DNA of 64,000 nt from Polyangiales bacterium (GCA_046351535.1 JAXLYG010000023.1:64001-128000); one strand, 5' to 3'; numbered from the stretch's first letter, positions 36,791-39,499 are shown. The notes: a model not told the origin generated them from the letters alone. Program-made: numbers and translations.

Positions 36791-39499
36791 TTAGAAGAGC
36801 TTGCTCGCGTCGATGCGGCCGAGTCCCCAGTCCTCGATGCGATCCTGGGCGCGCCGCGTGGTGGCGCCGGCCGTCTCGCCGAAGCGCGAGAGCACGCTCG
36901 CACGCGTGAGCGAGGGGTCCTTCTGGAGCATCACCGCCACGAGCCCCGTGACGTGCGGCGTCGCCTGGCTCGTGCCCGACATGTCGAGCAGCGCCAGCGG
37001 GGCCGCCGAGTTCGCACGCACCTTCACCGACGTGATCACGTCGCCCGGCGCGGCGACGTCGATCGCGCGACGGCCCGCCGCCGCGAGGATGGGCCCCGGC
37101 GACGAGAACGACGCGAGCTCACCGACCGCCGCGCCGCCGCTCGAGCGAGAGACGAACGCGGCCACAGTGATCGCGCCCTCGGACGCCGCGGGCGTGCCCG
37201 TCTTGTAGCCGTTGGTGTGCGAGAGCTGGAGCTGCGGGTTCGCGTAGACGAAGGGCGAGCCGTTCGTCCATCCGTGGAGCTTCACGTTGGACCGACCGCG
37301 GTTGGTGAACTCGACGTTCCACTGGGTCGAGGTGACGGGCGGCGGCGCGATGGGCGGCGTGGGCTTCTTCCACGAGACCTCGATGTTGCGTCGGCTGTTG
37401 GGGCGCAGGGGGCCGTTCTGGATCTGCACCGTGATCTTGTTCGCGCCGAGGGGCGGCGACGAAACCGCCGCGTGCGTCGGCTGCGGGGGCACCGCCACCG
37501 TCGAGAGCAACCCTCCGCCCGTCGCCGCCGTGACCTTCACGTCCACGAGGATCGCGTCGCCGTCGTCGCTGTACGCCCAGAAGCTCGCGGCGCCGCCCTG
37601 CGCGTCGCTGATCGACAGCGGCACCTGACGCGTGGCGCCGGAGGGGATGTCCTCGAACCAGTGGGTCGAGTGCGTGCGCGAGTTCCCCGCGGCGACGCAG
37701 ATGATCCGCGCGCGCCGGGAGTCGGAGGCGTTGCCCGCGAGCTGGCTGTCGGTGACGAGCTCGGCGATCGCGCGGCAGAAGGGATCCGAGCCGTCGTGGG
37801 GGTGCACCTCCGCGCCGAGGCTGAGGTTCACCACGCACGGCAGCCCGAGCTCCGTCGCCTTCTGGAAGCAGTACCGCACGCCGTGGATGATGTTGTGAAA
37901 GCCGAAGGTGGTCGCCACCGAGACGATCTTCGCGCCCGGCGCCACGCCGCCCGGCCACGCGACGCCCGTCGAGGTGGTGAACGCGCGCCCCGCAGCGATC
38001 CCCGTGACGTGCGTCCCGTGGCCGCGCGCCCAGGGCGGCGCGTTCGCGATGAACACGCCGTCGATCTCCGCGCCCAGGTACTCGCGGCCGTAGTCGAGAC
38101 CGTCGTACTGCGCCTTGTTCGCGGCGGCGGCGCGGGTCTTCGGGGCCTGCGACGTGGCGGCGCCCTGATCCCACACGGCGACGATGCGCCGGTTGCCCGC
38201 GGCGTCTTTGAACGCGGGGTGCGGGCCGTCGATCCCGTCGTCGACCACGCCGATGAGCACGCCCTGCCCCGCCGAGTCAGGCGCCACCGCGGCCTTCGCG
38301 TACATCCCCGCGGCGCCGTCGAGGTTCAGCGCCGCGCGCGATTGCACCATGGTGGGCTCCACCATGCGCGAGGGCTCGAAATCGCTCACGTCGGGTCGCG
38401 CCGCGACCAGCATCATCTGGTCGCGCGGCCCGTGAAACGTGCGATAGAGCCCGGTGCCCACGACGCGGACGTTCGGCGGCAGCGGAGGCGTCATCGGCCC
38501 CACCGCAGAGACCTTTCCGAGAAAGTGCACCTCCTCGCCGGGCGCGCCCGACGCGGCGCTCGCGCCGTCGACCGGGGGCGGCGGTGAAGGGGCCGCGGCG
38601 TCGAGCGGGGCGGCGTCCGAGAGCAGCGCGGCGGCGTAGGGAGAGAGCGCGGTCCTCGCGCCGTCGGGCACGGCGAGGCCCTCGCCCTGCTCCGCGTAGA
38701 AGAAGGCCACGTCGATGAAGGGATCACCCGCGGGCAGCGTGGTGACCACTGACTGGAGCACCGAGGGCGCGAATCGCGGCGTGGCCTTGTCGCCTTGATC
38801 GTCGAAGCGAAAGACCACCTCGCGAGAGCTGTTGGCCTTCGCCTGATCGCCGTCCCACAGGAGCTCGGGGAGGATGCACTGCGCGTAGATCCTCCCCTGC
38901 TGGACCTTGAGCTCCTGGAGGTTCTCCGTGAGGTACTCGGCGCTCGCCCCGTCGGGGAAGCCCTTCGCCGCGATGGTCCCCTTCGCGTAGTAGCCCCCGT
39001 CGGCCGCGCGGTACGTGAAGAAATAGCGCAGCACCTCGATGAACGCAGCGCGGTCGCTCGATGGCATCCCCGGCGGAACGGTGGTGATCTGATCGAGCTT
39101 GACCGCGAGGGCCGCGCGGGCCGCGGGCGCGAGCGCGCCGAGGGCCGTCGCCCACTTCTCGCCGTCGACCCAGCTCTTCATCACGCGCTTCATCGCGGCC
39201 GCGTCATCGGTCGCGATGTCCGCGCGCTCGGGGAGCCACACGAGCATGTCGGTCAGCGGGGTCGCGCCGATGTCGGTAGGAACCGCGAAGGTGCGCGCGG
39301 CGCCGGCGCCGCTCACGGTGACCTTCGTGCTCGACGCGCGGATCACGTACTTGGGCTGAAGGGTCTTGCCCGCGAAGGTGCGCTTCGCGTTCTTGTCGTT
39401 GAGCACGTACGCGCCCGCGTAGAGCGAGAGGCGCGCGTCCGCCGCGAGGTCCGGCTTGCCCGTCAGCTTGTCAGAAAACCATGCGAAGAACTCTCGCAT
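36791..39499 (-). CDS. S8 family subtilisin-like serine protease, no signal peptide
   Basis: Asp (GVVDDGIDG), His (GHGTHVTGIAAG), Asn (AAGNS), Ser (GTSQATPHVTG). Start MREFFAWFSDKL at 39499, 24 nt after the P9 stop. No hydrophobic N-terminus. Confidence 0.85.
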   Translation of the reverse strand: MREFFAWFSDKLTGKPDLAADARLSLYAGAYVLNDKNAKRTFAGKTLQPKYVIRASSTKVTVSGAGAARTFAVPTDIGATPLTDMLVWLPERADIATDDAAAMKRVMKSWVDGEKWATALGALAPAARAALAVKLDQITTVPPGMPSSDRAAFIEVLRYFFTYRAADGGYYAKGTIAAKGFPDGASAEYLTENLQELKVQQGRIYAQCILPELLWDGDQAKANSSREVVFRFDDQGDKATPRFAPSVLQSVVTTLPAGDPFIDVAFFYAEQGEGLAVPDGARTALSPYAAALLSDAAPLDAAAPSPPPPVDGASAASGAPGEEVHFLGKVSAVGPMTPPLPPNVRVVGTGLYRTFHGPRDQMMLVAARPDVSDFEPSRMVEPTMVQSRAALNLDGAAGMYAKAAVAPDSAGQGVLIGVVDDGIDGPHPAFKDAAGNRRIVAVWDQGAATSQAPKTRAAAANKAQYDGLDYGREYLGAEIDGVFIANAPPWARGHGTHVTGIAAGRAFTTSTGVAWPGGVAPGAKIVSVATTFGFHNIIHGVRYCFQKATELGLPCVVNLSLGAEVHPHDGSDPFCRAIAELVTDSQLAGNASDSRRARIICVAAGNSRTHSTHWFEDIPSGATRQVPLSISDAQGGAASFWAYSDDGDAILVDVKVTAATGGGLLSTVAVPPQPTHAAVSSPPLGANKITVQIQNGPLRPNSRRNIEVSWKKPTPPIAPPPVTSTQWNVEFTNRGRSNVKLHGWTNGSPFVYANPQLQLSHTNGYKTGTPAASEGAITVAAFVSRSSGGAAVGELASFSSPGPILAAAGRRAIDVAAPGDVITSVKVRANSAAPLALLDMSGTSQATPHVTGLVAVMLQKDPSLTRASVLSRFGETAGATTRRAQDRIEDWGLGRIDASKLF

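Follow-up and report, generated by a model that had tools for sequence, protein, structure and literature searches.

A Csp-like subtilase with an additional N-terminal domain, encoded among unannotated paralogues in a Polyangiales bacterium

The stretch of DNA considered here (the window: 64,000 nucleotides (nt) from a metagenome-assembled genome (MAG) of a Polyangiales bacterium, GCA_046351535.1 JAXLYG010000023.1:64001-128000) carries on its minus strand a gene for an S8 family serine protease, or subtilase, set among genes for a family of proteins of about 800 amino acids (aa) that are labelled here P9 to P2, Q1 and R (Table 1). The protease is a new variant of the architecture of the Csp proteases, preceded by an N-terminal domain (NTD) that is new as well, and its gene stands in a conserved position directly behind that of P9. 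Until now, Csp-type subtilases had, to our knowledge, been described only in the germination of clostridial spores. The cluster itself is uncharacterised; it may be a system of protease-gated assembly or an effector system, and a literature search found no paper describing it.

The protease and its kinship with Csp proteases

The open reading frame (ORF) of the subtilase is a genuine gene. The proportion of G and C at its third codon positions (GC3) is 0.91, in a genome of 71% GC; its product passes the Pfam Peptidase_S8 model (PF00082) with 112 bits against a gathering cutoff of 21.8, and is 100% identical to a 911-aa “S8 family serine peptidase” annotated by NCBI from a Polyangiales MAG. A preliminary description, made from the sequence alone, had placed its start at the ATG at 39499. 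Translation almost certainly begins nine codons further upstream, at the GTG at 39526: GAGG is found 7 nt upstream of this codon, the GTG and the TGA stop of P9 share letters as GTGA, and the resulting N-terminus (MIHPDLSLCMREFF) fits the consensus of the orthologues, MxHPxL......FF. With this start, P9 and the subtilase gene overlap by 4 nt, where a gap of 24 nt had been reported; the gap on the other side, to P8, had been given as 21 nt and measures 20 nt.

The catalytic residues (numbered throughout on the 902-aa product counted from ATG 39499) were read directly from their codons: Asp420 at 38240-38242, His494 at 38018-38020, the oxyanion Asn606 at 37682-37684 and Ser844 at 36968-36970. 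The corresponding motifs, VVD420DG, H494GTHV, AAGN606 and GTS844, are those of S8 proteases, with the triad in S8 order, and all four residues are invariant or nearly so among 27 orthologues. The active site is intact, as had been noticed earlier. The protein is, however, a composite: the S8 core occupies only about residues 411-902, and residues 1-400 consist of the new domain and a propeptide-like module.

An AlphaFold2 (AF2) model built with 29 relatives (pLDDT 81.5, pTM 0.81) predicts a mixed alpha/beta fold for the NTD, from residue 1 to about residue 300, a beta-alpha-beta fold for the propeptide-like module (residues 323-376 in the model), and a disordered linker (residues 383-403) after it. 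The compactness of the model, as expressed in its pTM, suggests that the NTD packs against the protease. Since Pfam I9 finds no match in the subtilase, the propeptide remains a putative one; Foldseek alignments to the pro-forms of Csp proteases and subtilisin do reach beyond the catalytic core. The NTD has no profile similarity to the paralogues.

Foldseek comparison of the model with the PDB gives the clostridial CspA, CspB and CspC as best matches (E 1e-27 to 1e-24, TM-score 0.76-0.78, 530-640 columns, 15-22% identity), followed by pro-subtilisin as the next class (E 8e-13). When a profile of the protease family is compared with PDB sequences, Csp-type germination proteases are again best (E 1e-43 to 1e-41), in a single stretch of alignment that continues through the eight-stranded beta insert. 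This insert corresponds to the jellyroll that is unique to Csp proteases (PMC3567191). The window protein thus shares with them the S8 core, the jellyroll between the oxyanion Asn and the catalytic Ser, a propeptide-like module ahead of the core, and the lack of a signal peptide. It differs in its additional 300-aa NTD; in its host, a non-sporulating member of the Polyangiales, with relatives in about nine mostly Gram-negative phyla; and in its surroundings, which include no linked SleC gene, the operon neighbours being unannotated paralogues. It also lies outside the Csp family in the annotation sense, because its scores are far under the NCBIfam cutoffs (CspBA, 61.8 bits against 1250; CspC, 27.7 bits against 675); the model for type VII secretion mycosins, TIGR03921, is not passed either (53.9 bits against 278.75). 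The prodomain of Csp proteases remains bound and blocks the active site, so that CspB is latent; CspB itself is specific for a precursor, pro-SleC, which it cleaves, thereby activating the cortex hydrolase SleC (PMC3567191).

The view that the subtilase lacks a secretion signal agrees with a survey of the whole cluster, no protein of which has a hydrophobic N-terminus or a transmembrane (TM) helix (maximum KD19 below 1.9). The further step of calling it cytoplasmic is insecure: some relatives carry peptidoglycan-binding modules and several paralogues have linkers of extracellular type, so a cytoplasmic site of action is uncertain.

A conserved pair of genes

Homologues of P9 are numerous (more than 100 at 40-50% identity, all “hypothetical”); no relatives were found in viral contigs. 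Loci were gathered by exact look-ups and by scanning a single genome for each species; hidden Markov models (HMMs) of the NTD, of the S8 core and of the N-domain and C-part of the paralogues were used to score them. When the protease itself served as query, generic S8 proteins crowded the database results and the true orthologues were missed; these were recovered through the genes next to P9 homologues and by searching exhaustively with the NTD. The loci derive from Myxococcota, Alpha-, Beta- and Gammaproteobacteria, Nitrospirales, Planctomycetota, Cyanobacteria, Acidobacteriota, Verrucomicrobiota, Rokubacteria and Actinomycetota, and about 32 non-redundant ones have readable DNA downstream of P9.

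At about 25 of these 32 loci, representing about nine phyla, a complete NTD-S8 gene lies directly behind P9 on the same strand, mostly after 3-37 nt or overlapping it. Aligned over its whole length, NTD included, the window protease shares about 40% identity with the genes in this position in a metagenome contig and in Thiocapsa bogorovii. Five further loci have an NTD gene without a protease domain behind P9 (L023, L026, L029, L034, and the gene P0147 in L047/L048); at the remaining two neither NTD nor NTD-S8 adjoins P9, one of them having an S8 gene 10 kb off. The other paralogues are shuffled: they number 2-7 and vary in order and strand. A five-gene core of P9, the S8 gene and genes of the R, Q1 and Q2 types can be recognised in Thiocapsa, a Hyphomicrobiaceae MAG, a contig labelled Nitrospirales, Leptolyngbya and others; in the window this core is spread over both strands, with P8 to P3 as additional genes. 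That the protease and the paralogues are functionally linked is strongly supported, because the order P9, NTD-S8 is kept while the other genes shuffle.

The NTD has a narrow distribution. An exhaustive search of 1.84e9 cluster representatives yielded 43 relatives, almost all of which form the N-terminal part of S8 proteins 930-1000 aa long, and the domain is confined to this protease clade and a few proteins that consist of the NTD alone (in L023, L026, L029 and L034) or of the NTD and something else. The latter (P0134, P0145, P0147 and P0152) continue into unknown regions of 350-430 aa, which in P0147 and P0152 have a weak, sub-threshold OmpA-like match; P0147 is encoded directly behind a P9-type gene. 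In one orthologue of the protease, P0137, an inserted PG_binding_1 domain separates the propeptide-like module from the S8 core. Because genes for the NTD alone or with other regions persist behind P9, P9 and the NTD form the fixed pair, of which the protease is the usual, replaceable output.

The partner, P9, is modelled by AF2 (pLDDT 79) as an N-domain with unusually long strands (residues 169-206, 211-233 and 364-394), a disordered linker (residues 288-349) and four beta-sandwich domains; when the whole model was used in fold searches, all matches were to beta-sandwiches. Within the linker, at residues of about 300-322 (window about 41005-41073), is a motif with the consensus TG.G...D.G.PR.PG, which in the window reads TGVRDASQGPPLVQG. 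It is conserved despite the predicted disorder and degraded in four of the lineages lacking S8, and may be taken as a lead rather than as proof of processing.

Possible roles of the protease

The reading with most support is that the gene encodes an active, non-classically localised Csp-type subtilase (propeptide-like module, S8 core, jellyroll insert) that has gained a dedicated N-terminal docking domain. The protease would be held latent by its propeptide, perhaps also by the NTD, and would be coupled through the NTD to P9, the lead member of the family, with which it would be co-produced from overlapping genes. It would then act as a site-specific processing enzyme, cutting P9, and perhaps other paralogues, in exposed linkers. 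The paralogues, putatively built like P9 from a conserved long-strand N-domain, a disordered linker and four beta-sandwich domains, would be switched by the cut into an assembled, active state, and the whole would be a horizontally mobile effector or conflict-type cluster. Such a mode of action would be like that of CspB and of the proteases licensing gasdermins or the Pepco and EACC1 effectors (PMC3567191, PMC13475620, PMC12642450). Processing by a docked, Csp-like protease as the trigger of assembly is proposed tentatively, as an idea that falls somewhat short of being probable; cleavage of the paralogues by the subtilase is, taken by itself, plausible to a similar degree. Speaking for the proposal are the conserved catalytic tetrad, the match to Csp proteases in fold and in sequence, the example of CspB as activator of a precursor, the compact model, the constant order of P9 and NTD-S8, the narrow distribution of the NTD, the linker motif of P9 and the defence genes beside two of the loci.

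Several observations weigh against this proposal. Five lineages have P9 and the NTD without a protease domain, so that the paralogues cannot everywhere depend on being cleaved; the earlier suggestion that the subtilase processes or activates the proteins of its operon is supported in part, as regards the functional link. A distant branch in the Paracoccaceae (L008, L035-L041) has at least five paralogues, a conserved PLD-like enzyme, a tyrosinase and three more unknown proteins, without any NTD-S8 gene, and since both these clusters and the five S8-less lineages exist, the paralogues can function without this protease. The association of the P9 linker motif with the presence of S8 is based on only two independent losses. 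The peptidoglycan-binding modules of relatives hint at the envelope, not the cytoplasm. As for the assembled state, the N-domain of P9 matched no known pore-former or any other fold, and the long beta-hairpin is strongly charged, unlike a membrane segment, which weakens a simple pore model; a beta-barrel pore formed from this hairpin is disfavoured by that composition.

As the main alternative, the NTD could be an adaptor that loads interchangeable C-terminal modules onto a scaffold or delivery structure made of the paralogues, the protease then being a cargo or output that acts elsewhere, for instance on envelope proteins or proteins associated with peptidoglycan, whether of its own cell or of a competitor. 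This would account for an NTD (HMM positions 2-285) that stays beside P9 while the C-terminal part varies (S8, none, OmpA-like or unknown), and fits the PG_binding_1 domain in one protease orthologue, the other enzymes of related clusters (muramidase, and Tae4 with PG_binding, in two Nannocystaceae; PLD and tyrosinase in the Paracoccus type) and the arrangement of constant scaffold plus variable enzyme typical of toxin and conflict systems (PMC7159879). However, Csp-type proteases with bound prodomains are narrow processing enzymes rather than broad toxins (PMC3567191), S8 greatly outnumbers any other partner (about 25 of 32 loci), no recognisable export or delivery machinery was found, and the muramidase and Tae4, present only in two closely related MAGs, could be unrelated neighbours; an adaptor of this kind is considered rather unlikely, if well worth keeping in mind. 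A more far-reaching idea would make the cluster a horizontally spread machine of an undescribed kind, in which the paralogues of about 800 aa co-assemble in complement-like fashion and enzymes recruited to P9 through an adaptor domain, mostly a Csp-like protease but at times another module, control assembly or output, as a new class of conflict, lysis or delivery system. This is speculative, and unlikely as it stands.

The paralogues might also build an extracellular or surface structure (coat, fibre or matrix), reaching it by non-classical export or lysis and being matured by the subtilase outside the cytoplasm, a reading that overlaps with both the processing and the adaptor proposals. They are rich in tandem beta-sandwich domains, and several have Pro-rich or Ser/Thr-rich linkers of a kind commoner in extracellular proteins; the PPSPP linker of P8, the Ser/Thr/Asn-rich linkers of Q1 and the beta/gamma-crystallin insert of P6 are all features common in secreted proteins. 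Relatives contain peptidoglycan-binding modules, and the tyrosinase of the Paracoccus type is a cross-linking enzyme. A surface structure is nonetheless improbable, given that signal peptides, lipoboxes and TM helices are absent from all of the roughly 12 cluster proteins, that the Met1-Leu2... N-terminus is conserved as part of the fold, and that no secretion genes are linked to the cluster. It might finally be asked whether the adjacency is meaningless, the subtilase being a housekeeping protease with general duties inside the cell and its place in the operon accidental. Subtilases without a signal are known from other bacteria, and nothing more specific speaks for the idea; with synteny across about nine phyla, overlapping genes and an NTD found nowhere else, it is scarcely credible.

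If the proposal of a processing protease is compared with known systems, one parallel is that of the gasdermin-protease pairs, bacterial (bGSDM with caspase-like or subtilase proteases) and fungal (HET-Q1 with the S8 protease HET-Q2), in which a gene for a signal-less protease likewise stands beside non-secreted proteins thought to be unlocked by cleavage (10.1101/2021.06.07.447441; PMC13475620). The window differs in the size of its paralogues (about 800 aa) and in having 7-8 different ones rather than one effector, and neither sequence nor fold searches matched the paralogues to gasdermins. The protease-effector defence modules (MBL, alpha/beta-hydrolase, Pepco, EACC1) may offer an analogy, that of a latent effector licensed by a linked protease, which in different clades is of trypsin, caspase or S8 class (PMC12642450); none of their effector families occurs in the window cluster, and the window protease carries no fusion to a recognisable STAND or other sensor. 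The complement membrane-attack complex is an analogy only: there too several paralogous multi-domain proteins are encoded with a protease, which suggests the possibility of an ordered hetero-assembly after proteolysis, but no homology was detected, and the long hairpin of P9 is charged, not amphipathic.

The Csp architecture, combined with a new, putative docking domain, is thus found in about nine phyla and is tied there to a large protein family that has no name in databases. If the protease does gate the assembly of the paralogues, a multi-subunit protease-licensed system would join the short list of gasdermin, Pepco and EACC1, and the NTD with P9 would be a defined enzyme-partner pair.

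Other genes of the cluster and the window

GC3 supports a genuine run of minus-strand genes from 41970 down to 21995, with gaps of at most 34 nt, and three genes adjoining it, R on the minus strand and Q1 and Q2 on the plus strand. BLAST and home-made HMMs unite P9, P6, P5, P4, P3/P2, Q1 and R in one family, marked by a conserved N-terminal Met-Leu followed by “...FRD....FYYLP..PRL” in all members, and the operon comprises seven or eight members of it. The family finds no match in Pfam, NCBIfam, PADLOC, PHROGs or PDB sequences; nor do P8, P7, Q2 and the NTD in Pfam, NCBIfam, PADLOC or PHROGs. The subtilase does lie within an operon of paralogues, as had been described, but P8, counted among them earlier, is not an ordinary member, since its family motif is only internal and weak.

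Table 1. Genes of the cluster and domains of the protease (window positions; residues of the protease in 902-aa numbering)
Feature	Position	Strand	Description
S8 subtilase gene	36791..39526	minus	911 aa from GTG 39526; 902 aa if counted from ATG 39499
N-terminal domain (NTD)	38600..39526	minus	aa ~1-300; new; no Pfam, PDB or PHROG match
Propeptide-like beta-alpha-beta module	38360..38533	minus	aa ~323-380; putative, from AF2 secondary structure and pLDDT
S8 catalytic domain	36791..38269	minus	aa 411-902
Eight-stranded beta insert	37265..37663	minus	aa ~613-745, between Asn606 and Ser844; matches Csp jellyroll insertion
P9	39523..41970	minus	815 aa; best-conserved paralogue, constant upstream partner of the NTD gene
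P8	34170..36770	minus	866 aa; Pro-rich linker; family N-domain motif FYYLPSSFRLKRDGG internal, aa ~466-566
P7	32306..34157	minus	divergent family member; frameshifted near 33170 relative to intact 591-aa orthologue in L002
P6	29407..32271	minus	954-aa paralogue; beta/gamma-crystallin domain inserted at aa 329-403
P5	26696..29377	minus	893-aa paralogue, from MLKLPAFKQ start
P4	24375..26675	minus	766-aa paralogue
P3/P2	21995..24370	minus	one paralogue of ~790 aa; ~80 codons out of frame; in-frame TGA 22889-22891
Q1	18468..21065	plus	865-aa paralogue; Ser/Thr/Asn-rich low-complexity inserts; orthologue of ~1100-aa gene in five-gene core of other phyla
Q2	21070..22041	plus	323 aa; no known domain; behind Q1-type gene in many loci
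R	16221..18329	minus	~702-aa paralogue from TTG 18329; orthologue of ~690-aa gene behind the protease in Thiocapsa and others

Some of these genes have peculiarities of their own. The linker of P8 reads PPSPPTPPSPPKPP; the idea that cleavage of P8 might expose its internal N-domain was dropped, P8-type genes being present in loci without S8 as well. That P7 is read in two frames is due either to a frameshift, which would make it a pseudogene, or to a mistake in the assembly of the MAG. The out-of-frame codons of P3/P2 translate as Arg/Ser/Pro-rich nonsense, and the sequences on either side align with a 791-aa orthologue from Leptolyngbya. The beta/gamma-crystallin insert of P6 (window 31063-31287; Pfam E 1e-5) is also found in the orthologue in L002, and the Ser/Thr/Asn-rich stretches of Q1 (window about 19119-19668), which include repeated TTTNTPNSS units, are inserted at the tip of the long hairpin.

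Outside the window, defence genes adjoin the cluster in two of the contexts examined, other loci having ordinary neighbours. The Thiocapsa cluster (L001 3286-8698) adjoins a serine recombinase, a BrxC/D-like gene and a DEAD helicase; another (L045 1943-4847) adjoins TIR_2, Jacalin and SLATT_1 genes. The two Nannocystaceae MAGs (L029 13577-17199 and L034) have, downstream of P9 and the NTD gene, a gene combining lysozyme and muramidase and one combining Tae4 amidase and PG_binding. On plasmid pNSM5a the Paracoccus-type cluster adjoins genes for a trypsin-like protein, EAD1 and an ATPase, and a trypsin-like protease follows it; these genes were considered as a swapped protease, but are absent from the other Paracoccaceae loci and probably belong to a separate neighbouring system.

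The window as a whole has a GC content of 71%. Upstream genes for a protein with PPC and caspase-like C14 domains (7841-10165) and for an M48 peptidase (10187-11062) show no link to the cluster. ARAGORN predicts an 83-nt tRNA-Ala (CGC) at 16153-16235, at the cluster edge and overlapping the 3' end of R; this is doubtful, because Rfam finds no tRNA there at gathering score. The region 52000-56000, with a GC content of 0.55-0.58 against about 0.70 elsewhere, contains a DUF7452 gene (52426-53274) and several ORFs without known domains, and may be acquired DNA.

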